Shown: positions 1 to 29,279, numbered from the stretch's first letter. The stretch is 32,000 nucleotides of DNA from Candidatus Harpocratesius repetitus (GCA_021498095.1 JAIZWK010000001.1:2520001-2552000), one strand, 5' to 3'. Numbers and translations: made by a program. Notes: generated by a model from the letters alone, not told the origin.

Positions 1-720
1 TATAAAATTTACAGCGAACGCATTGAATCTTTTAAAAATAAGAAACTGGCACGAAAATATACCAATATGGAAAAAAATCAAAAATATCATCTTTTTGAAG
101 AGATTCTTACAGAAATTAGACCTGTTCTCCAAAGTGGATTGAAAAGCATTCTATTAGTTTCTCGAATCAAGCAAACTGAAGCATCTGATTTCTTACATCA
201 TTTAAAAAAACATCATAAATGGATTTTTAATGTAAATAATCCTAATTCAGCATATATAACAGTATTAACTGGAGATCTCACTGATATGGAGCAAGTTGCT
301 TCATTCACTCAAAATTCATCTTTTAAAGAGTCTCTCGGTCAAACTGTTGAAAAAGAAGCAGATTCAATTATTACTTTGTTAGAAAAACGATTGAATAATC
401 ATGAAAAAAGTTTTTTCCTACATTCTTTAAAAGAGATTGAAAGTTTAATTTATGCAGGAGGCACTCGGAAAAAGAAATTTAAGTCATTACCACTTATTCC
501 TGAATATATACTTTTAACAGATGAATATCTTGAAGAACATCCCAACAAAGCTCGTCTTCAACGATTATTACAAATTGTACGCAATCGAAAAATAAGATTA
601 AAAATTATTTCCAGTGAATCTAGCGCAGGAAATCGATTGACAGATTTAGGGGGAATCATATGTTTTTTGGAAATTAAAACAAAATATGAAGAGCAAAAAG
701 CTCAAGAGTTCTTCGATTGA
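1..720 (+). CDS. Divergent Pelota/aRF1-family protein (domains 2-3), 5' end outside window
   Basis: Frame 1 is open from base 1 (no stop before the ATG at 67). The C-terminus LQIVRNRKIRLKIISSESSAGNRLTDLGGIICFL matches the eRF1/Pelota domain-3 end (V.IIS.EHE.G.QL..LGGIAAILRF). Confidence 0.65.
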   Translation, partial: YKIYSERIESFKNKKLARKYTNMEKNQKYHLFEEILTEIRPVLQSGLKSILLVSRIKQTEASDFLHHLKKHHKWIFNVNNPNSAYITVLTGDLTDMEQVASFTQNSSFKESLGQTVEKEADSIITLLEKRLNNHEKSFFLHSLKEIESLIYAGGTRKKKFKSLPLIPEYILLTDEYLEEHPNKARLQRLLQIVRNRKIRLKIISSESSAGNRLTDLGGIICFLEIKTKYEEQKAQEFFD

Positions 721-14730: not shown

Positions 14731-15129
14731 TATTTTATTGACGTCATTAATAAAATATCTAAAATCAGATAAATTCTCTCTTATAAATTGAAGAACCCGC
14801 TTTTGATTAATTTTTCCATATTGATGAACTAAAATATTCCTAAATCCTTTCATTGCTTTTAAATTTGATATGTTTGTAAGGTGGTTTTGTAGCAGATCAA
14901 AGAGATTTTCATCATTTTGGGGTGGTCCAAGATGTAAAAACTTCACAAGATGATAAGCTATATCTATCACATTTTCAATACAAATTTGAAGTTGCCGCTC
15001 TATCGCACGACGTTTTTCGTTTGATTTATAGAAAATCTCATCTTCTTTAGGAATAAATTCATTTAATTCTTCAAGATAATTCTCTAATTCTGAAATTTTT
15101 ATTGATATTCGCTCAATTTCTATTTTAAT
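14707..15129 (-). CDS. hepT: HEPN (DUF86/HepT-like) RNase toxin
   Basis: GFRNILVHQY gives the RX4HxY motif. The frame is open upstream of the called GTG (14970) through IERISIKISELENYLEEL...RRAIERQLQICIENVIDIA to a TAG just past 15129, so the probable start is ATT at 15129, overlapping the MNT stop. Confidence 0.85.
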   Translation of the reverse strand: MKIEIERISIKISELENYLEELNEFIPKEDEIFYKSNEKRRAIERQLQICIENVIDIAYHLVKFLHLGPPQNDENLFDLLQNHLTNISNLKAMKGFRNILVHQYGKINQKRVLQFIRENLSDFRYFINDVNKILKEIKRD

Positions 15130-15505
15130 CCACCTCTAAAAATATTTTAAAATGTGGATAGAAATCGGTAAAAGCGCGGTAGGTCTTCTCATAAATATCG
15201 CATACTTGCTCAAAATCCTTATTTATCATCAGTTTTCCATGTGTTAAAACCTCATGTTGAACATAGAGGGGCAAATCAGTGAAAAATTGAATATCTAGTT
15301 TCGATGGAAAATTTCCTTTATAATACAAGACTTTTTGAAGAGGAATACCTTTAACATGCAGAAACGGTACTAAGCAAATATCAATATCGTTATATTCATC
15401 TTCGCGAACACTACTTCCATATAAAATTAGAGCTACAATGTCAGGATCCTTTTTTACTTCAGATAGTAAACCGTTCAATAAATTTAAATCTGAAGATTGT
15501 AGCAT
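15125..15505 (-). CDS. mntA: Minimal nucleotidyltransferase (MNT) antitoxin
   Basis: ILYGSSVREDEYNDIDIC has the GS...DxD motif, and LPLYVQHEVLTHGKL follows. It lies directly upstream of the HEPN gene. Confidence 0.88.
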   Translation of the reverse strand: MLQSSDLNLLNGLLSEVKKDPDIVALILYGSSVREDEYNDIDICLVPFLHVKGIPLQKVLYYKGNFPSKLDIQFFTDLPLYVQHEVLTHGKLMINKDFEQVCDIYEKTYRAFTDFYPHFKIFLEVD

Positions 15506-19855: not shown

Positions 19856-22800
19856 TCATTTTGATCTTAATTTATATTTATAACCTTTTTTCCATTGGAA
19901 TATTTCAATATGACCATCGGAAAAGATTTCCAATTCTAATAAACGTTTTGAAGTGATTGAACGGTAGAATCTCTTTGATTTCTTTGATGTAGCAATATAA
20001 CCTTCATAATTTTCAATTTTTTCATTCATCTCTTTATGATTGGAATATTTAATCATTCCGATCTCTTTTTTCCTTTTATTTAGAGTTCTATTTTTTTCTA
20101 TTACAAAATTTAATACTCCAATCGAAAATGTACCGAAAAAATTGATATTTAAATTGTTGTTTTTTGTAAAATTTATTATTTTATTTAGAATAGATGCTAA
20201 TACATCGTCATCGGCATATTCAGGTTTTTTTTTATTAGGGAATTCGTGAATGATTAGCTTGAGGAGTGAATCCGCATCTATATTTAATTGTTTGTATGTG
20301 CAAGATAAATAACGTTCTGAAGGTCTGAAATTTGGATCAAGAGGGGGTAATTCCGATATTTCAATCTGACTGGAATCAAATATCAAATAACCTAATTTTC
20401 TTTTTTGAATTTCTTTTTTATATTTTTTAAAAGTTTCCTCTGTAAAATTGTCATTCGAAATTATATAAGAATTCGATTTTATTGCCCTTAATATTAAGTA
20501 TTTATCATCATATTCTCCTAATGGTGCTTCATGGACATAAGGTTTGTCTAAATATGCGAGATAAGCTTTTTTGTTATCAATAAAATTCCTCAAATTAGTG
20601 CTAAATACAACTTCAACTTCATAACCCGCATTTCGACAGTATTTTTCTGCTAATTGTATATTCGAAAATTGAGCAGATTTAGATTTGGTACTTGCCCGAC
20701 ATATATTTGGACCATCGAGAACCACAGATTTTATGGTTTTATCTTTGAATATTTCCAATGAATTAAGCGCTTTTCTGGGATCTAACAAAAAAAGAGGCGG
20801 ATTGGTCTCACCTTTATGATTTGAAATTACATATTTTATCAAATTTTTAAAAATCCTGTTTTTATTGTTTTTTTTTGATAAAGAATTAAAAAATTCATGA
20901 TCTCCAATTATAAATAAATTTTGTCGACATCGTGAGAAAGCTACGTTTAGTCGTTGAACGCTTTTCAAAAACCCAATCGTTTGATATTTGTTTGAGCGTG
21001 TTAAAGGGACAATGATAATTTCTCGTTCTTGTCCTTGAAACCGATCCACAATACTTACTTTAATTTCCACGGATTTTATATCTCTATAGTAATATAATCC
21101 TTTTTGGCATGTGATTTCTTTCATTTTTTTTAGTTTATCACGAATATCAAAAAATTGCGATGTATAAAACGTAATAACACCAATTGTAAGAGGGTGTCTT
21201 TCATCAAATGGAATATTATTCTTTTTTTGATATTCACGGTATCTCCATAAATTGTTAACCCCTTTTTTTTTTATATCATCTCGTATTTGTAAAAGTAATT
21301 GACATACGATATAGCTTTCTAATATATTGCATTTTGAAGTTGATTCAGGTTTATAAATCTCTTGCCTTAAATTGGGCTGAAAATAGGATGTTGATAAAAA
21401 CGTCATTAACGCAAAATAATCATTTTCTTTTGAATTCGCGTTGAATCTTGATTTAGAAATATTAAATCCGTGATAATTTGTAATTTCTGCAGATAATAAT
21501 TCCTTATTGTATACATTTTCACTTAGAAAATTAGCAATAATGGGAGGACATCGATATTGATAATTTAACATAAATTTTCGTGAAGATTCGATGCGATTAA
21601 AGAAATAATGATAAATACTACCTAAAATTTCGATAAATTCTTCGAGAATTTTAATAAAAGATCGATCATATTCCACCAATCTATATATTTCTTCCCACTC
21701 CTTATCAGTGAATTTTTCCCCCCCAACATAATGTTGTCCCTCATAAATCATCTGAAATTTTTCCATTATGAATTCAATAAAAGGCGAAGTTTGTTTTTTA
21801 GAGTTTTTTTGAAAATGACTTTGGGATTTTTGTCTTTTATTAGCCCTTTTTTGTAATTTTTGAGAAAATAAATTTAGTTTTTCTTTTAATTCATCATCTA
21901 ACATTTTAAAACGATATTCCAATGTAATCTCAATTTCATCAACATCAATATAAGGTGGTAGCTGATTTTGATCCCCAATAATTATCCATTTATAAGCCCG
22001 CGTAGCGGGAATTAAAAATTCTAGTACAGTAGCTTTTGACGATTCATCTATTATCATTACATCAAAATTCTGTAAGTATCTATTTTGATCATAAATCCAT
22101 ACGACACCACTGGAAGTTCCAAAAACGAGGTTGGCTGAATTTATAATTGTATCGTCAATTAAGAACGGATCATTTTCAACATTTATAAAAAACTCTTCCT
22201 GGATTACATTCAAATTAGTCTTTTTTTTTGACTTTTGCTTTTCTGGGATTTTATTATGAGAAGTTAACTGATAGTATCTCAAGATATCTTCTTGCATGAA
22301 GTTTTTCCAGTTCTTTTTAATATTCTCCATTGTATATATACGTAATTTATCCTCAATTTTGGCTGGTCTCCCAATCCTTACCATTTGAATTCCAAGATTT
22401 GGTTTATTGTGTAACCTTTCGATAATATTGTCAACTGCGACATGTGTTGGCGCAACGACTAGTACTCTTAACCCATTCCTACAAAATTGCTGTACCATTT
22501 CAATGATCAAAGTGGTTTTACCTGAGCCCGGTGGACCTTGCATTAACGTCAAATCAGGGTTAGATAACGCAGTTTTTAATGCAGTATATTGGTGTAATGT
22601 TTCTTGGTTCTTGGAATTGATTTCGGAATTGATTGGTAAGATCTCTTGAGGTTTATATTCGGTAAAAACCTCTGGTCGGAGAATTTGATCTACTAAATCC
22701 TGTAAGGGTGTTAAAATAGGTGTTTTAAGAAGATCCAAGGCATTTCTTTTGCGATAATGTAAAGTTAAATTTTCATATAGTATAACTTTACCACCTTTAG

Positions 22801-23839
22801 ATAGTTCTCCCGCGATTTTTAGTAATTCTTTCAAATTTTCTTTTTTTTGAAATATAAAAGTGGAGCCCAGTTCATTGTTAAAATCTGAGTCTTCAACCTC
22901 TACGATGATGAATTTCTGTCGTTTATTATTTTTTGATTTTTCACCATATGGAATTTTAAGTTTTGTTCCAGTTTGAGATAATAATTTAGGAGGATAAGAT
23001 TCAAACCAAAGCTTAATATCCTCAATATGATTTAATTCTGAATCTAATCTTAAATTAAGCTGTTCTTCATTTAAACTCTCAGTATTATTTAAAAGAATTT
23101 CTCCTTTTTCGGCAAAATCTTTTTCAATATAATTAATGGAAAGATGGTTGAATTCAGCTTGTGGCTTATAATCATCATTGACAATCGATTGAAATTCTGC
23201 ATCCATATAATAATCAAAGGGTTTAAATTTCCTTAATAAAAATTCAGGATATTCATTATTTAAAACATTTATATTTTTATAAAAGTTTTGACGTAGATAT
23301 TGCTTCAATAAGCGAAAAATTGTATTTTTTAAAGTTTCTGGATTAAAATATCCTTCTTTTTTTAAAACACATAAATAATGGTCGGAAACATTCAATAAAT
23401 TCCAATTTCCTGTTGATATTACACTAAAACATAGAAGTGAGTCTTGATCGTAAGTATAGCTTGTTCGAAATTTCAGACCTAATTCAGGAGAAATCATTTC
23501 AATATTCAATCTATGATAGGTTTTATCATTGGATAGGAAATTTTTAACTTCTTCTATTTTTTCCACGATTTTCTGATTGATTACATCATTATTAAATTGG
23601 TCTTTATTCAAATTTATTTCAATAGGGCTTGTCTCTTTGGTTTGTTTAACGAACGTAGAAAAAATTAATTCAAAATGAGCTTCGATCGATGGGGAATCCA
23701 AAATTTTATCTAAAATGTTATTATTCTTAATTCCTTCTTTCAAATAATTTATAACAAAAGTCCATTTCTCTTCTCTTTTAATCGATTTCTCTAAACTAGA
23801 GTTATCTCGAAAAAAGTCAAAAAAATAATTTTCATCCAT
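19856..23839 (-). CDS. UPF1/DNA2/NAM7-like SF1B helicase fused to a Zc3h12a/Regnase-type NYN (PIN-fold) ribonuclease
   Basis: Helicase motifs: QGPPGSGKTT, VLVVAPTHVAVDN, IIDESSK, IIGDQNQLPP, YQYR, SIVDRFQGQERE, RLNVAFSRCR. NYN motifs: VVLDGPNI, YDDKYLI and IISNDNF (about 20400-20740). Confidence 0.9.
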   Translation of the reverse strand: MDENYFFDFFRDNSSLEKSIKREEKWTFVINYLKEGIKNNNILDKILDSPSIEAHFELIFSTFVKQTKETSPIEINLNKDQFNNDVINQKIVEKIEEVKNFLSNDKTYHRLNIEMISPELGLKFRTSYTYDQDSLLCFSVISTGNWNLLNVSDHYLCVLKKEGYFNPETLKNTIFRLLKQYLRQNFYKNINVLNNEYPEFLLRKFKPFDYYMDAEFQSIVNDDYKPQAEFNHLSINYIEKDFAEKGEILLNNTESLNEEQLNLRLDSELNHIEDIKLWFESYPPKLLSQTGTKLKIPYGEKSKNNKRQKFIIVEVEDSDFNNELGSTFIFQKKENLKELLKIAGELSKGGKVILYENLTLHYRKRNALDLLKTPILTPLQDLVDQILRPEVFTEYKPQEILPINSEINSKNQETLHQYTALKTALSNPDLTLMQGPPGSGKTTLIIEMVQQFCRNGLRVLVVAPTHVAVDNIIERLHNKPNLGIQMVRIGRPAKIEDKLRIYTMENIKKNWKNFMQEDILRYYQLTSHNKIPEKQKSKKKTNLNVIQEEFFINVENDPFLIDDTIINSANLVFGTSSGVVWIYDQNRYLQNFDVMIIDESSKATVLEFLIPATRAYKWIIIGDQNQLPPYIDVDEIEITLEYRFKMLDDELKEKLNLFSQKLQKRANKRQKSQSHFQKNSKKQTSPFIEFIMEKFQMIYEGQHYVGGEKFTDKEWEEIYRLVEYDRSFIKILEEFIEILGSIYHYFFNRIESSRKFMLNYQYRCPPIIANFLSENVYNKELLSAEITNYHGFNISKSRFNANSKENDYFALMTFLSTSYFQPNLRQEIYKPESTSKCNILESYIVCQLLLQIRDDIKKKGVNNLWRYREYQKKNNIPFDERHPLTIGVITFYTSQFFDIRDKLKKMKEITCQKGLYYYRDIKSVEIKVSIVDRFQGQEREIIIVPLTRSNKYQTIGFLKSVQRLNVAFSRCRQNLFIIGDHEFFNSLSKKNNKNRIFKNLIKYVISNHKGETNPPLFLLDPRKALNSLEIFKDKTIKSVVLDGPNICRASTKSKSAQFSNIQLAEKYCRNAGYEVEVVFSTNLRNFIDNKKAYLAYLDKPYVHEAPLGEYDDKYLILRAIKSNSYIISNDNFTEETFKKYKKEIQKRKLGYLIFDSSQIEISELPPLDPNFRPSERYLSCTYKQLNIDADSLLKLIIHEFPNKKKPEYADDDVLASILNKIINFTKNNNLNINFFGTFSIGVLNFVIEKNRTLNKRKKEIGMIKYSNHKEMNEKIENYEGYIATSKKSKRFYRSITSKRLLELEIFSDGHIEIFQWKKGYKYKLRSK

Positions 23840-23892: not shown

Positions 23893-26800
23893 CTAATAAA
23901 TACTTCCAATAATTTCATAGTCAAACACGGTTCCATTTTCTTGAGTTTTTTCCTTTATATTTTTGTATTTTATTATTATTTGCTTACTGGAATTGATATA
24001 AATATAACATTCAATAGGTTCTCGACCATTTTGAGAATTAATTTCAATGTAAAACGGGGGACGGTTAACTTCTTCTAATATATATTTTTGATTAAGTTCA
24101 TGGAATGATGAAATTTCATCAATATCAACAATATGGTCTAATATTCCATCTTCTTGGAGATTTTTACTAATATTTTGAAAAATTGGGTGTTTTGAGAAGA
24201 TTATTAGTCGAAGCTCTTTAATTACAAATTTTAAACCTTCTAAAGGCTTGATACATATTTTACATAAATTATTACTAGGAATTATTGGAGATAAATCCAT
24301 TGGGATGAATTTTAAGCTACCTTGATTCATTCCGAGCAATCCTAATTCTTCTGACAAATTATTTTGGATAATAGGGTTTTTTTCAATTTTAGATAAACCA
24401 AGAATTAAGAATTTTGAATCAGATTGAGATGATAAAATCTTAAAATTCTTCTTATTACTTATTATATCCGTTAAAATATCTTTGAAGTAGTCTATCCTTA
24501 AGGATTGCCCCGATAAGAGAATAAAAAATTCTTTATTCTCACTTTTTTGTAATGTATAATTTTCTAGTTGAGAACGAATATTTTCTACTATTTGATTACC
24601 TTCCCTTATGCAAAATTCTTTAAACATCTTTTTTGGATTAAACTGAGATTTTTTTTCAATTTTTGGCTTAAATTTTTGGAAATAGGAGGGAATAGAATTA
24701 AAATTCTGATGTTTTAAATCTTTAAGAAGAAAAAATCGGATTTTTTGATTCTCTTTTAAATCTTTAAGGTTTTTATTCCATTGCAATTTTTTTTCAATAA
24801 AATCGCCTCCATTTTCACATTCAAGATAATTGCTTAATATAACCTGTTCTTTTTTTTTATTAATTGACACAATTAAGTGAGATGATTTGAAGAAACTCGC
24901 CCCCCAATCTATAATGATAAAATTCTTTTGCTTTCTTGAATCAATCAATTCTTTTTCTAATTTAAATGGGATATTATGTAAATGGGAATATGCAGCGACT
25001 AGCATCTCATCATAACAAACAATTTCATTTTCTTTGAGTCCAAAAAGGTTTGAAAATGTTTCTTTCAAAAAATTCTTAAATGAATTACTAGCTTTTCTTG
25101 GAACAGCAATTTTAATTTTTTGAATTTGGAAATTTGATAAATTTAAATGTTTTTTTACAAGAAAGAAATATTTAGAAATGAGATCGTGGTAATTTACTTT
25201 CTGTCCTGCAATATTGACTTTAACACTCCAATTTTCTCGATACAAATGTGATTTAAGATCATGAATAAGTAATATTGAGGATAAATTAGCTAATTGAAGA
25301 ATTTTATTATCATCAATTATACTTACTCCATGTTGCGGATGGAACATTAATCTTGTAGGAATCTCAAGATATTGATTTTTAAACCAATTTTTATAATTTT
25401 CATTATCTTTCTCATTGGAATATGCTATTTCTAAACTAGGAATTAAATTTACATTTTTTGTATTTTGTGATATTTCTGCATATGCTAATTTTGTGGAATA
25501 TTCTCCAAAATCTATCAGTAGATCTACATTTCTTTTTTCCTTATTTATTTGGTTTACTTTTAATTCTGCATCATGGTTTATTTTAGAATTTAAGATTTGC
25601 CATTCCTCTTGATTAATTTTATTATTTGGAAAAAATTCAAAGTAGAATCTGAGAGAGGCAATATATTGAGCAAGATTTTGGAATAAAATACGATATCTAT
25701 TGTGTTTTTTTCTCATTAAAGAGTAAGAGTTAATGAAATCATAGGAATATCTTGTATTTTTAACATCTTCAATAAAATTGTAAAGTGTATTTATCATATC
25801 ACTGGAAAAAACACATAACGGTGAAATAAAACAGAGAAACTTGAAAATTGAAAAAGAAAAAAGAGAATCTCCAAAAATAATTTTGGTAGTTTTATTATAA
25901 AAATTCAATTCTTCGGGAGTATTAAATTCTAATAAACCAATATGAAAATTTTTATCCCCATTTTCTAACTCTAAAGATACTGACTGTTTTTTCGAGATAT
26001 CGTCATAATAACTTGTTTTAAAATGGATTTTTTTAATGTCGGTTGGTTTTATTAGATTTTTTCCAGGAAACATAAAAAAATACGGACTAACTGTAAGATG
26101 AAAATTAAAATTATCCCATTGCCAGGAATCACATTCTAAACATTCTAGCATAATTGAGGAATATTGTTCCCATTTTAAATTTGAAAATGTTTCCTTGATA
26201 ATGTAAAAAATTTTCGCAGAGTCTTGAGGGGGAGCCCAATTTTGAAATGCGTGAATTTTGTTAAAGAAATATATCATCGTAAGAATTGAACTATTTAACA
26301 TTTTTCGCCAGATAATTTCTGGATTTTCGTTAAATATCATTTCCCTACTAAAGCAAAATGTGTCTAAATCAAATATTATTGAACTATTGGATCCTTTAAG
26401 ACTATTTTGATTAATTAAGTAGCCAAAATTTAACGATTTATCTTTTTTTCGCTTTTTTTGAATTGCTCTCTGAATGGGTAGATATAAGATCGGTTTGTCA
26501 GAAATATATTTTTCAATCACATTCATTTCATTCGAATTAAGGAATTTATTAGAATATAGTAATTTATATATTAAGTGTAAAGCATACTCTTCATTATCTA
26601 ATTCATTTAAAATACTATCTATATGTGCAATTATATCCGAAATTGAAGACATCGGATAATTTACCCACAATCTCATTATATATATTAATTTTTCTCGATC
26701 AATTAATTTTCGAACATTTATCAATACATCATGAGCAATTTTTCGAATATTTAACGATTCGTGGGAAGTTAATATCTCGTAAAAAATTTCGATATCGTCT

Positions 26801-26979
26801 ATTCCACCTTTTTTAAGAAGATCTTCCAAAAAATTCAATATATGTTTTTGTTCTTCTGAATTAACCTTAAGCCTATTACTTGAAAAAAAAGAACGGAAGA
26901 AAATTGCTTTGTTCTTTGCAAGTCCATCTTTAGGAGAATAAATGAATTCAGGAATTGCATTGTGGTTTTTTGTTCTCAA
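23893..26979 (-). CDS. 1028-aa protein with a degenerate Hsp70/actin-fold ATPase-like domain in its C-terminal half
   Basis: LLIDFGEYSTKLAY, IPTRLMF, IAVP, YDEMLVAAYS, IIIDWGASFF, NGGDFIE and ILLSGQSLRI occur in the order of Hsp70 GIDLGTT, TPS, ITVP, NEPTAAA, FDLGGGTF, GGEDFD and LVGGSSRI. Confidence 0.7.
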   Translation of the reverse strand: MRTKNHNAIPEFIYSPKDGLAKNKAIFFRSFFSSNRLKVNSEEQKHILNFLEDLLKKGGIDDIEIFYEILTSHESLNIRKIAHDVLINVRKLIDREKLIYIMRLWVNYPMSSISDIIAHIDSILNELDNEEYALHLIYKLLYSNKFLNSNEMNVIEKYISDKPILYLPIQRAIQKKRKKDKSLNFGYLINQNSLKGSNSSIIFDLDTFCFSREMIFNENPEIIWRKMLNSSILTMIYFFNKIHAFQNWAPPQDSAKIFYIIKETFSNLKWEQYSSIMLECLECDSWQWDNFNFHLTVSPYFFMFPGKNLIKPTDIKKIHFKTSYYDDISKKQSVSLELENGDKNFHIGLLEFNTPEELNFYNKTTKIIFGDSLFSFSIFKFLCFISPLCVFSSDMINTLYNFIEDVKNTRYSYDFINSYSLMRKKHNRYRILFQNLAQYIASLRFYFEFFPNNKINQEEWQILNSKINHDAELKVNQINKEKRNVDLLIDFGEYSTKLAYAEISQNTKNVNLIPSLEIAYSNEKDNENYKNWFKNQYLEIPTRLMFHPQHGVSIIDDNKILQLANLSSILLIHDLKSHLYRENWSVKVNIAGQKVNYHDLISKYFFLVKKHLNLSNFQIQKIKIAVPRKASNSFKNFLKETFSNLFGLKENEIVCYDEMLVAAYSHLHNIPFKLEKELIDSRKQKNFIIIDWGASFFKSSHLIVSINKKKEQVILSNYLECENGGDFIEKKLQWNKNLKDLKENQKIRFFLLKDLKHQNFNSIPSYFQKFKPKIEKKSQFNPKKMFKEFCIREGNQIVENIRSQLENYTLQKSENKEFFILLSGQSLRIDYFKDILTDIISNKKNFKILSSQSDSKFLILGLSKIEKNPIIQNNLSEELGLLGMNQGSLKFIPMDLSPIIPSNNLCKICIKPLEGLKFVIKELRLIIFSKHPIFQNISKNLQEDGILDHIVDIDEISSFHELNQKYILEEVNRPPFYIEINSQNGREPIECYIYINSSKQIIIKYKNIKEKTQENGTVFDYEIIGSIY

Positions 26980-27027: not shown

Positions 27028-28647
27028 TCACATTATTTCAATTCCACCTTTTTTGGGTTTGTGAATTCGAGATTCTTCTTCAGAAGCAAGAACAGCCTCA
27101 TGATTTTCAACTTTAACTCTTAATAGTTCAATCATCTCTTTTTTGGTTTCAGAAAGAGGTTTTGTTTCATAAATTACTTGCTTTAAGTCCTCTTGCGTAA
27201 AATCTCTCTCTTCATCATTAAAAGCAATATACATTGCCTCTTTGATAACTTGTTCTATCTCTGCCCCAACAAATCCTTTTGTTAATTCGGCCAGTTCTTC
27301 GAGATCATATTTATTTGGATCTCTTTTCACATTTTTAATATGGACCTTAAAAATACTCTCCCGTTCTTTTGAGTTTGGCAAATCAAGAAAAAACACTTCA
27401 TCAAAACGACCTTTTCGCATTAATTCTGGTGGCAATTCATCAACATTATTAGCAGTTGCAATTACAAAAACAGGTGAGGTATTTTCTTGCATCCAAGTTA
27501 AAAAGTTCCCCAATACTCGATTAGAAACTCCTGCATCTAAATTGCCTCCTCCGCTTACAAATGCTTTCTCAATTTCATCAATCCATAAAATAGCGGGAGC
27601 AGTAGCTTCTACAAGATGTAGTGCTTGCCGGAGACTCTGTTCTGTAGCACCTACATAAGAGCTATATAGTGCTCCAATATCTAATCGCAGTAATGGCATT
27701 TTCCAACTTCCCGCGATAAATTTTGCTGTGAGTGATTTTCCCGTTCCAGGGATCCCCAGCAAAAAAACACCTCGTGGTTGTGGGAGTCCATATTTTAGTG
27801 CTTTTTCAGAAAATGAATCTTTTCTTCGATTTAGCCATTTTTTTAGTACTTCCACACCTGCTAGATATTGCGGCACCTCATTTGGGGCAAAAAATTCTAA
27901 AGCTCCAGATGCTGCGATAATTCCTTTTTTGCCTTTTACCACAATCTCAACCATTTTTTCAGGATGTTTATTCTCTAAAACTAGTGCTAAATTAAAAAGC
28001 CGTTCTGCTTGGTTCATTGTTAATCCTAAAGAAGATCTGACAATTTGCTCCATTATTGACTCTGGAATTTCTATTTTTCCTGGTAAATTAAGATTATTTA
28101 ATATTCGAGTAAATTTTTGATTTAATTCCTCTTTTGTGGGAGGACGGATCGTTTCAATTTCGAAGAGATCTGTTAGTTCTCGAGGAATTTTCTCTGAATG
28201 AGAAAGAAAGATTACAGAACATTTACTCTCTTTGATATAAGGATGTAACCTTTTTAATGCACGAATCAATTTTTGCGAATAATCTATATCTGTATTCTGG
28301 ATATAAAAATGAAAATCAGGGAAAATTAGTAAATAGTTTTTTCCTTCTTTTGCTATCTCCATGATGTCTGTTTGGAAAGCATCAAGGAAATTTTGTGCTG
28401 ATAAATAGTGAGGAAGTGGGCTTGCATTTTCTTGAGTTAGATGGAAAATCCATTCGTTTAAATTTGACCAAAAGATATTTTCATCAAAAACATAAGCTTC
28501 TCGGTTAGATCTCGTGGCAATTTCTTTAATTATTGCTAAAACTCGCTCGGTTTCGTCACTGACTAACCAGAGATAAGGGTATCTTGCCTTTACCCGTGCT
28601 TCAAGACTCCGTTTAAGTTCAAAATCAATACTATTAACTGAATTCAA
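27028..28647 (-). CDS. Ycf46-like AAA+ ATPase
   Basis: Walker A GIPGTGKS, Walker B ILWIDEIE, sensor ATANNVDELPPELMRKGRFDEVFF. The N-terminal region (RYPYLWLVSDETER, LIFPDFHFY) is Ycf46-like. Confidence 0.9.
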   Translation of the reverse strand: MNSVNSIDFELKRSLEARVKARYPYLWLVSDETERVLAIIKEIATRSNREAYVFDENIFWSNLNEWIFHLTQENASPLPHYLSAQNFLDAFQTDIMEIAKEGKNYLLIFPDFHFYIQNTDIDYSQKLIRALKRLHPYIKESKCSVIFLSHSEKIPRELTDLFEIETIRPPTKEELNQKFTRILNNLNLPGKIEIPESIMEQIVRSSLGLTMNQAERLFNLALVLENKHPEKMVEIVVKGKKGIIAASGALEFFAPNEVPQYLAGVEVLKKWLNRRKDSFSEKALKYGLPQPRGVFLLGIPGTGKSLTAKFIAGSWKMPLLRLDIGALYSSYVGATEQSLRQALHLVEATAPAILWIDEIEKAFVSGGGNLDAGVSNRVLGNFLTWMQENTSPVFVIATANNVDELPPELMRKGRFDEVFFLDLPNSKERESIFKVHIKNVKRDPNKYDLEELAELTKGFVGAEIEQVIKEAMYIAFNDEERDFTQEDLKQVIYETKPLSETKKEMIELLRVKVENHEAVLASEEESRIHKPKKGGIEIM

Positions 28648-28697: not shown

Positions 28698-29279
28698 TTA
28701 AAAAGTTTTCCAATCAAAATTATCATATAGAGACGTTCCTGTACCGATAACTTTCCCTTTTTCTATTATAATTTCCATATTTCTCTTTGGAATGAAATCT
28801 TGCAGAGAATAACGACTTGAAAACAGAACTATTTGTTTATTTGCAGAACCAATAATTCCTATTGCAACTCTCTCATGATGTTGATACGGGCCAGCAATTA
28901 TTACATCAACATATCGGGATATTTTGTTAAAACTTGGGATTAATTTCAATTCATCTAAGGTTAAACCTGTGCTAATAATTACAGAAAGCCCTAATTGGTA
29001 GGCTTTCTTACTTATCTCATAAACGGCTTTTGGTTGGAGGAAAGGTTCACCTCCAGAAAGCGTAATCCCCTCAATGCTCGAATTTTCGGTTGAAAATTCA
29101 AAAAGCTCATCAATATTCATCAAATAACCCCCATTTTTATCGTGAGTTTGAGGGTTGATACACCCGTGACATTTTTTTTCACATCCTTGAAAAAAGATAA
29201 CTAATCTTTCTCCTGGTCCGTTTACTGATGATTTTGCAATCACACTATGTAATCTCACTGTATTATTCTGGGGAATCAC
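28698..29279 (-). CDS. NrdG-like radical SAM protein (single 4Fe-4S cluster)
   Basis: SSVNGPGERLVIFFQGCEKKCHGCINP contains CxxxCxxC; also GITLSGGEPFLQ and VDVIIAGPY. Confidence 0.9.
   Translation of the reverse strand: MIPQNNTVRLHSVIAKSSVNGPGERLVIFFQGCEKKCHGCINPQTHDKNGGYLMNIDELFEFSTENSSIEGITLSGGEPFLQPKAVYEISKKAYQLGLSVIISTGLTLDELKLIPSFNKISRYVDVIIAGPYQHHERVAIGIIGSANKQIVLFSSRYSLQDFIPKRNMEIIIEKGKVIGTGTSLYDNFDWKTF

Follow-up and report, generated by a model that had tools for sequence, protein, structure and literature searches.

A helicase-NYN fusion protein within a multigene cassette of sporadic occurrence in Asgard archaea

Within the UPF1 superfamily, helicases of the MkoA and CnuH kind form a prokaryotic branch and typically come with an exchangeable nuclease, which is either adjacent or fused. 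Mokosh, credited to Millman et al. 2022, is said to combine the helicase MkoA with the phospholipase D (PLD) nuclease MkoB, with a fusion, MkoC, in type II. In CoCoNuT systems, CnuH is described as a UPF1-like helicase in which Walker A is followed by a helical insertion, the proposed binding site of the downstream winged helix-turn-helix (wHTH)-nuclease CnuE; the nuclease is at times fused to the helicase, the ATPase motifs of the Hsp70-like partners are degenerate, and the same description includes regulation by CARF proteins and a predicted targeting of RNA (PMC11090510). PhoH2 of bacteria and phages, in which a PIN domain is joined to a PhoH ATPase/RNA helicase, is a reported sequence-specific unwind-and-cut enzyme according to the passage of PMC5499597 that cites it. 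Here, we describe a helicase-nuclease fusion protein, P0001, and the seven-gene cassette that holds it, both located in a 32,000-nucleotide stretch of Candidatus Harpocratesius repetitus (GCA_021498095.1, JAIZWK010000001.1:2520001-2552000; the whole of this stretch is referred to as the window). The genome is a single contig of 4.36 Mb and its host belongs to the Lokiarchaeia. The cassette has no description as a system in Pfam, NCBIfam, PADLOC, or the literature searched, and its features are collected in Table 1.

Table 1. Coordinates of P0001, its domains, and the other cassette genes, counted from the first nucleotide of the window (AF2, AlphaFold2; dsRBD, double-stranded RNA-binding domain; ORF, open reading frame; SF1B, superfamily 1B)
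Feature	Position	Strand	Basis or remark
P0001, helicase-NYN fusion, 1327 aa	19856..23839	-	One uninterrupted ORF, 1327 codons
P0001 N-terminal region, residues 1-415	22595..23839	-	AF2 model, Foldseek, MkoA model from residue 309
SF1B (UPF1-superfamily, MkoA-type) helicase core, residues 416-981	20897..22594	-	Pfam, PADLOC MkoA, motifs, PDB relatives
Residues ~485-590, helical insertion that follows Walker A	22070..22387	-	Predicted docking surface for P0002 N-terminus
Zc3h12a-type NYN (PIN-like) RNase domain, residues 1037-1152	20384..20731	-	Pfam, residues, AF2, Foldseek
P0001 C-terminal ~175 aa past NYN	19856..20383	-	Common to P0005 only; low model confidence; no family match
P0002, 1253 aa	16071..19832	-	Starts 23 nt downstream of P0001; in all cassettes seen, an orthologue comes after the helicase
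P0003, 1028 aa, unique N-domain plus divergent Hsp70/actin-like ATPase domain	23893..26979	-	Orthologues match PF00012
P0004, 539 aa, AAA+ ATPase of classical type (CDC48/FtsH/IetA-like; PF00004 and lid), preceded by a 280-aa N-terminal part without assignment	27028..28647	-	Pfam, PADLOC, NCBIfam
Small radical SAM protein, 193 aa (Fer4_12; NrdG/PflA activase-like, NrdG 1.5e-24)	28698..29279	-	
Small conserved protein, 189 aa	29286..29855	-	Heimdall orthologue matches DUF2997
RNase III-domain protein without dsRBD, 226 aa	29979..30659	-	Beside the cassette in all five loci, orientation varies

Within the AT-rich window (G+C content of ~28%), P0001 combines three Pfam domains on one polypeptide: AAA_11 at residues 416-631 (E = 3e-37, 129 bits), AAA_12 at residues 751-981 (E = 1e-34, 120 bits), and RNase_Zc3h12a (PF11977) at residues 1037-1152 (E = 5e-9, 36.4 bits, with a gathering cutoff of 23). 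Helicase motifs I to III (GPPGSGKT at 435, DESS at 598, and GDQNQLPP at 622) and IV to VI (QYR at 761, DRFQGQE at 932, and NVAFSR at 965) are complete; with both helicase domains above threshold and all six motifs in place, P0001 belongs to the UPF1-like SF1B superfamily. In front of RecA1, an AF2 model of residues 1-420 (mean pLDDT, the predicted local distance difference test score, of 66) places helices and a beta-barrel at residues ~165-390, with a weak likeness to the stalk/1B elements of SETX and UPF1. SETX is the top Foldseek match of this model, which is itself of moderate confidence (E = 5e-3, probability of 0.99; 0.51 for UPF1). These two, which fall on the stalk/barrel part, are its sole meaningful matches, and the first ~160 residues stay without assignment. 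The CH zinc-knuckle domain of UPF1 was not found, as residues 1-415 contain only two Cys and give no Pfam match.

The active site of the NYN domain was compared with the list of MCPIP1 active-site residues in PMC5499597. We observe D1042 and N1045 (VVLDGPNI), D1111/D1112 (EYDDKY), and S1128 and D1130 (IISNDNF), while the position of Regnase-1 D248 is taken by Glu1134, a conservative replacement. Residues 1020-1327 were modeled with AF2 from 42 aligned NYN sequences, and pLDDT values over the NYN core are 92-98. The 22 best Foldseek matches of this model in the PDB are all NYN domains of ZC3H12A/B/C or KHNYN (probability of 1.0, target template modeling [TM] scores of 0.57-0.71), with PRORP next, and a PDB sequence search reached ZC3H12B at 3e-4, in weak agreement with the fold. 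Score, PIN-like fold, and Asp/Asn/Ser active site thus identify a PF11977 domain. No CCCH zinc finger follows it, since residues 1150-1327 contain one Cys and three His and give no zinc-finger match. The original prediction had read from this DNA a UPF1-like helicase with a full SF1B motif set and a Regnase-type NYN domain on one polypeptide, four acidic NYN positions, a C-terminal PIN/NYN fold, and possibly an Asgard host. These readings all held up, the last through the nearest helicase homologues, which are annotated as Promethearchaeota, Heimdallarchaeota, and Kariarchaeaceae, and through an Argonaute gene cluster in the same genome (see below); the fifth acidic position is the one that differs, as Glu1134. 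Judged from their residues, both domains of P0001 look catalytically competent.

A second fusion, P0005 (1,341 amino acids, 52% identity to P0001), was found on an independent JGI metagenome contig and in a Logan assembly, and it has the same helicase-NYN architecture, catalytic residues, neighbors, and gene order, with Asp at the position of Glu1134. Because an independent contig carries the same architecture, the fusion is not an assembly artifact. The C-terminal regions of the two proteins (residues 1020-1327) are only 35% identical, yet the core catalytic residues are kept in both. In public reads, four hydrothermal-vent DNA runs carry only identical fragments of 151-271 bases, none of which bridges the helicase-NYN junction, and no RNA run was among the listed sequencing runs with P0001 sequence. 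Rfam and tRNA scans of the window gave no matches.

With respect to its family, the helicase of P0001 fits the PADLOC model of Mokosh MkoA (PDLC03920) over residues 309-1010 (4.8e-96, 321 bits), a model on which the NYN-less orthologues P0007 and P0015 score higher still (1e-102 to 1e-103). The top NCBIfam match is the IGHMBP2 family, and the best solved relatives by sequence are IGHMBP2 (121 bits) and UPF1 (87 bits), followed by DNA2 and SEN1. When helicase relatives in a large protein database are ranked, P0005 comes first, then nine NYN-less orthologues of Loki type (42-47% identity, 1,032-1,218 amino acids), orthologues of Heimdall type (34-35% identity), and many bacterial proteins of ~932 amino acids (27-30% identity, ~200-220 bits), with the best eukaryotic protein, a fish SMUBP-2, at 111 bits. 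A search of genome contigs for related loci, which keyed on generic P-loop motifs, brought up distant bacterial helicases and no Asgard names. A maximum likelihood tree of 62 helicases was also built (quick search, LG+C20, Shimodaira-Hasegawa-like approximate likelihood ratio test [SH-aLRT] support). The Loki-type clade has a support of 100 and the combined Asgard clade of 99, and the latter lies, together with two bacterial clades, inside a clade of support 95. One of the two bacterial clades is PLD nuclease associated, a label taken from the gene neighborhoods of two of its members. SMUBP-2, Dna2, and a diatom protein fall outside on long branches. The closest relatives of P0001 therefore appear not to be eukaryotic UPF1 proteins, although UPF1 itself is not among the 62 sequences. 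Leao et al. independently infer a bacterial origin of Asgard MkoA.

Two of the bacterial relatives (28-30% identity; one from Paraburkholderia and one from a metagenome) lie in four-gene operons (L007:10001-17391 and L010:10001-17560) made up of the MkoA-like helicase, a 472-amino-acid protein, a tandem-PLD nuclease, and an RtcR/PspF-like CARF-AAA-HTH regulator (PADLOC, 3e-139). By their predicted gene content, these operons have a Mokosh-like helicase-plus-PLD layout, and they adjoin genes of McrBC, of the OLD family, and of DndB.

P0001 and P0005 are sisters in the tree (support of 99) and are nested among NYN-less orthologues, so that a single gain of the NYN domain is the simplest history. 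The C-terminal tail of P0001-type helicases is variable across orthologues, being an NYN domain, Lys-rich low-complexity sequence, or nothing. Among the 400 Asgard species genomes of our distribution survey, the fusion is found in one, and every other helicase match stops near residue 1007. PF11977 itself is present in 181 of the 400 genomes, mostly in stand-alone proteins of ~170-190 or ~580-600 amino acids, the latter belonging to one Asgard family (f13). When 1.84 billion representatives were searched exhaustively with HMMER, only 99 NYN relatives reached an E value of 1e-3 or better (the best at 2.9e-15), and the named proteins among the top ones are archaeal NYN proteins of Hodarchaeales and Methanolobus. 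Since PF11977 is common in the phylum and the closest named relatives include Hodarchaeales proteins, a local donor pool for the NYN domain exists. No helicase was found in the long proteins among these NYN relatives, as judged by Pfam for ten long representatives and by phmmer for all. Searching long proteins with residues 1025-1165 as an NYN query gave zero matches and missed P0005 as well, so this search is uninformative about other fusions. Three metagenome NYN proteins of ~700-1,010 amino acids (P0149, P0166, and P0208) have an N-terminal Walker A at residues 26-30; Pfam finds the NYN domain alone in them. Such proteins may represent further fusions of an NTPase to NYN, without relation to the SF1B helicase. 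The fusion is best read as an archaeal Zc3h12a-type NYN domain that probably joined the helicase C terminus in the lineage of this genome and one metagenomic relative.

The gene neighborhood of P0001 is conserved independently of the NYN domain. Six co-directional genes are spaced by 6-53 nucleotides, with the RNase III gene another 123 nucleotides upstream. The six-gene block, from the small protein through the ~1,100- to 1,250-amino-acid protein, occurs in the same order in L002, L003, L005 (Loki type), and L009 (Heimdall type). L004 represents the L003 locus from a second assembly and the two were counted as one, which gives five loci with the window included, each with RNase III beside the block. 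The neighbors differ between loci, with NERD and UvrD genes in L002 and an AAA+/S8 protease pair plus JetD downstream, a Piwi gene directly upstream of RNase III in L005, and a CARF gene within the cluster of L009, which also has HNH and EVE/NucS among its neighbors. While the Hsp70-like proteins of the related loci match PF00012, P0003 itself gives no such match. With P0003 as query, the protein database used for the NYN query yielded P0003 alone, its candidate list being saturated. In Asgard family f15, the helicase, where scored, adjoins a protein of ~900-940 amino acids that holds only the N-domain (model ~35-309) of the Hsp70-like protein (for example, G051:C28:5018-8952, G050:C546:1068-4931, G045:C340:7363-11443, and G049:C55:29-5274). 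This hints that the N-domain, and not the Hsp70 part, is the conserved partner of the helicase. The four large cassette proteins were searched for a glycyl-radical motif (RVxG[FWY] type), with no match. Elsewhere in the window, we observe a 217-amino-acid protein with an eRF1 domain 3-like C terminus (67-720, plus strand) and a Pol-beta-type nucleotidyltransferase (MNT-like; 15125-15505, minus strand), both without a PADLOC match.

We observe a patchy distribution of the cassette. A full-length Hsp70-like orthologue was found only in G000, G031, and G145 of the surveyed genomes. Two genomes of the same genus (87% and 92% complete) gave neither a helicase match (E value of 1e-30 or better) nor an Hsp70-like one (1e-10 or better), and the cassette is also missing from most genomes of the same family. 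The patchy distribution and the absence from same-genus genomes place the cassette in the accessory genome.

For the helicase and its downstream neighbor, complex prediction suggests a direct contact. Helicase residues 400-1020 and P0002 residues 1-250 were modeled in three runs with our own alignments and scored 0.66, compared with 0.40 for the best control. Of 80 solved complexes, 58 attain the mark for this score, as do 2 of the 110 mismatched pairs; both counts are approximate because our own alignments were used. The runs share at least 54% of contacts, partner pLDDT is at least 63, and the predicted interface brings helicase residues 485-590, the insertion that follows Walker A, together with P0002 residues 27-141, within its N-terminal ~140 amino acids. 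The models support a putative binding of the P0002 N terminus to the helicase insertion, and the predicted contact agrees with the one proposed between the CnuH insertion and the CnuE wHTH (PMC11090510). No sequence or profile link between P0002 and wHTH or nuclease families was found. An ESM Atlas look-up of P0002 gave a best score of 0.86, under the useful level, and when profiles of the P0002 family and of the 472-amino-acid middle protein of the bacterial operons were compared, the probability was 0.14, which is no support.

Taken together, we consider it likely, with a probability of roughly 0.6, that P0001 provides motor and nuclease, as one subunit, to an accessory, multigene, NTP-driven RNA-targeting conflict system that is sporadic in Asgard archaea and gained its NYN domain late. 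An ATP-driven unwind-and-cut RNase would be the natural expectation from the two families. By analogy with these, the helicase would load on single-stranded RNA and move 5' to 3' with ATP, stripping structure or bound proteins, and the tethered Mg-dependent NYN endonuclease would cleave the exposed strand. P0002 may dock by its N terminus on the RecA1 helical insertion, like CnuE on CnuH, and provide targeting or a second effector, while the AAA+ ATPase, the Hsp70-like protein, the radical SAM protein, and RNase III may act as sensing, regulating, or double-stranded RNA-processing partners. The analysis defines an Asgard cassette with a concrete predicted helicase-partner interface, and P0001 is a natural single polypeptide for testing the coupling of unwinding to Zc3h12a-type cleavage.

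Several observations weigh against a conflict system of this kind. P0002 and P0003 have no match to Pfam or PADLOC models, and PADLOC gave a single weak candidate match for the ten flanking ORFs of the window. All 12 genomes of family f15 carry the helicase orthologue, a pattern that looks more vertical than mobile; its gene context there is different. The tree was built by a quick search, has long outgroup branches, and is without UPF1, MOV10, and CnuH sequences. No PLD or MkoB match was obtained in P0002, P0003, P0004, or the small genes, so the cassette is not canonical Mokosh, and neither McrB/AAA_5 nor McrC/DUF2357 was matched in the cassette with Pfam, PADLOC, or NCBIfam, so that it is not CoCoNuT either, for want of an McrB-type GTPase and of DUF2357. 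The preference for RNA rather than single-stranded DNA as the presumed substrate comes from family behavior, and the cassette members are known here from genes and predicted structures.

The same genome encodes an Argonaute cluster at G000:C1 ~3,523,800-3,534,700 (L092:4830-15725). It consists of rnc (RNase III plus dsRBD, 267 amino acids), a PAZ-Piwi Argonaute of 817 amino acids with D585 and E623, an AAA_11/AAA_12 SF1B helicase of 1,276 amino acids, and proteins of 375 and 762 amino acids, the last with a subthreshold PLDc_2 match (E = 1e-5) in which the HxK(x)4D motif is absent. Both the residue pair and the arrangement match what has been published on HrAgo1 from 'Ca. Harpocratesius repetitus FW102'. 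From its AAA_11/AAA_12 content, the "DExD/H helicase" published beside HrAgo1 is a member of the UPF1/MkoA superfamily, and the finding that a helicase of this superfamily flanks an eAgo-like Asgard Argonaute bears on the origin of RNA-silencing accessory factors. There are three RNase III-domain genes in the genome, namely, the cassette copy and those at G000:C1:58534-58785 and 3523976-3524227. The cassette copy has an N-terminal extension of ~120 amino acids and reads LALIGDAALD, compared with LEFLGDAVLD in the Argonaute-linked copy, so that Ala takes the place of one signature Glu.

RNase III and the helicase-NYN protein might make or trim guides, or degrade targets, for an Argonaute nearby or elsewhere, analogous to MOV10/MOV10L1 with Zucchini. 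The nematode RDE-8 would be another analogue. Such a role in small-RNA or double-stranded RNA processing draws on the RNase III gene that adjoins the cassette in five of five loci, on the Piwi gene of L005, on the Argonaute cluster, and on the rnc-asAgo-helicase associations published for Asgard archaea, but we regard it as unlikely: Piwi is adjacent in only one of the five loci, the cassette RNase III lacks a dsRBD, varies in orientation, and has lost an acidic signature residue, the NYN domain is missing from most cassettes, and the Argonaute-adjacent helicase is only a distant paralogue of P0001 that joins a different bacterial clade, of ~1,100-amino-acid proteins, in the tree. We likewise give low odds to the broader proposal that the cassette is an Asgard-restricted RNA-targeting immune or surveillance machine that shares ancestry or function with the rnc-Argonaute-SF1B-helicase clusters; if true, helicase-assisted RNase/Argonaute RNA silencing, for which the MOV10/UPF1-type helpers of eukaryotes may be compared, was already modular in Asgard archaea.

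We think it quite improbable that the cassette is a lineage-specific housekeeping machine for RNA quality control, or one associated with ribosomes, and not a conflict system. Its parts do resemble chaperone and RNA-decay factors, and both the constant presence of the helicase in family f15 and the faint defense signal in the window flanks would fit; its absence from same-genus and most same-family genomes, the variable C-terminal effector slot, and the defense-type operons in which the nearest non-Asgard relatives lie would not. Equally doubtful is an NYN tail that is not an RNase effector, being instead a nucleic acid-binding or regulatory remnant or acting on single-stranded DNA delivered by a DNA-directed helicase. 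UPF1-superfamily and MkoA/CnuH-like helicases can act on single-stranded DNA (PMC11090510), the last acidic position of the P0001 NYN domain is Glu and not Asp, and the Pfam score, at 36 bits, is modest, but against this stand the core catalytic residues retained by both fusions despite their divergence, the RNase activity of characterized Zc3h12a-type domains (PMC5499597), and an RNase III neighbor that points to RNA.

The Rosetta-stone proposal of the original prediction, in which an ancient UPF1-Regnase-1 partnership makes this fusion a forerunner in Asgard archaea of the RNA surveillance and stem-loop mRNA decay of eukaryotes, named both superfamilies correctly and has in its favor an Asgard host from a phylum in which Zc3h12a-type NYN domains are frequent, but it is very unlikely to be true, because the helicase groups with prokaryotic MkoA-like helicases and not with the eukaryotic proteins included in the tree (321 bits for MkoA, compared with 87 for UPF1 and 121 for IGHMBP2), CH domain and CCCH finger are lacking, and the fusion is derived, limited to two sister sequences among NYN-less orthologues and absent from same-genus genomes, and because of the bacterial origin that Leao et al. 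assign to Asgard MkoA. The prediction had also said that nesting of both domains in bacterial clades where the fusion is widespread would remove its bearing on eukaryotic origins; the helicase does group with prokaryotic defense helicases, while the fusion itself is rare. The helicase phylogeny that it called for leaves SMUBP-2 and Dna2 outside the Asgard/bacterial clade, on a sampling that UPF1 and MOV10 are not part of. The eukaryogenesis story is thereby corrected, and the UPF1-like/NYN fusion would represent a recent effector swap in a defense-type helicase family.

In comparison with eukaryotic systems, the P0001 NYN domain shares its fold (target TM score of up to 0.71) and catalytic constellation with Regnase-1/ZC3H12A-D, KHNYN, and N4BP1, but it is only 18-23% identical to the eukaryotic Zc3h12a RNases, is nearer to archaeal NYN proteins, and comes without CCCH finger, UBA, or KH modules; furthermore, UPF1 of animals is a separate protein. 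UPF1, IGHMBP2, and SETX have the same superfamily motifs as P0001 and a weak similarity in the stalk and barrel before RecA1, whereas P0001 has no CH domain and is much closer to prokaryotic MkoA-like helicases. PhoH2 is, like P0001, a prokaryotic single polypeptide of a PIN-superfamily RNase and an RNA helicase. It differs in the PIN group (PIN_4/VapC-like, compared with PRORP/Zc3h12a in P0001), in its ATPase family, in its opposite domain order, and in being a stand-alone gene and not part of a seven-gene cassette.

Mokosh and CoCoNuT are the systems that the cassette most invites comparison with. The helicase of P0001 fits the MkoA model, is paired or fused with a nuclease as in Mokosh, and has bacterial relatives that adjoin a PLD nuclease. 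Unlike Mokosh, P0001 lacks a kinase-like N terminus, its nuclease is a C-terminally fused Zc3h12a-type NYN domain (in the test for Mokosh type II, the match to the MkoC model is confined to the helicase part, and the fused nuclease is NYN and not PLD), and the Asgard cassette has five more conserved genes (RNase III, small protein, radical SAM, AAA+, and Hsp70-like). With CoCoNuT, the differences lie in P0004, which is a classical PF00004 ATPase and not a McrB-type NxD GTPase, in an unlike gene order, in the absence of HEPN from the cassette, in the additional radical SAM and RNase III genes, and in an occurrence so far confined to Asgard archaea. The likenesses to CnuH, CnuE, and CnuD, which are drawn from their descriptions and not from their sequences, are nevertheless several: as in CoCoNuT types II and III, the Asgard cassette has a UPF1-superfamily helicase with an insertion after Walker A and a downstream protein predicted to dock, an Hsp70-like candidate partner whose ATPase motifs are eroded, an NTPase of the AAA+ class, CARF proteins in relatives, a nuclease that is at times fused to the helicase (Vsr in CoCoNuT type III-B), and predicted RNA targeting.

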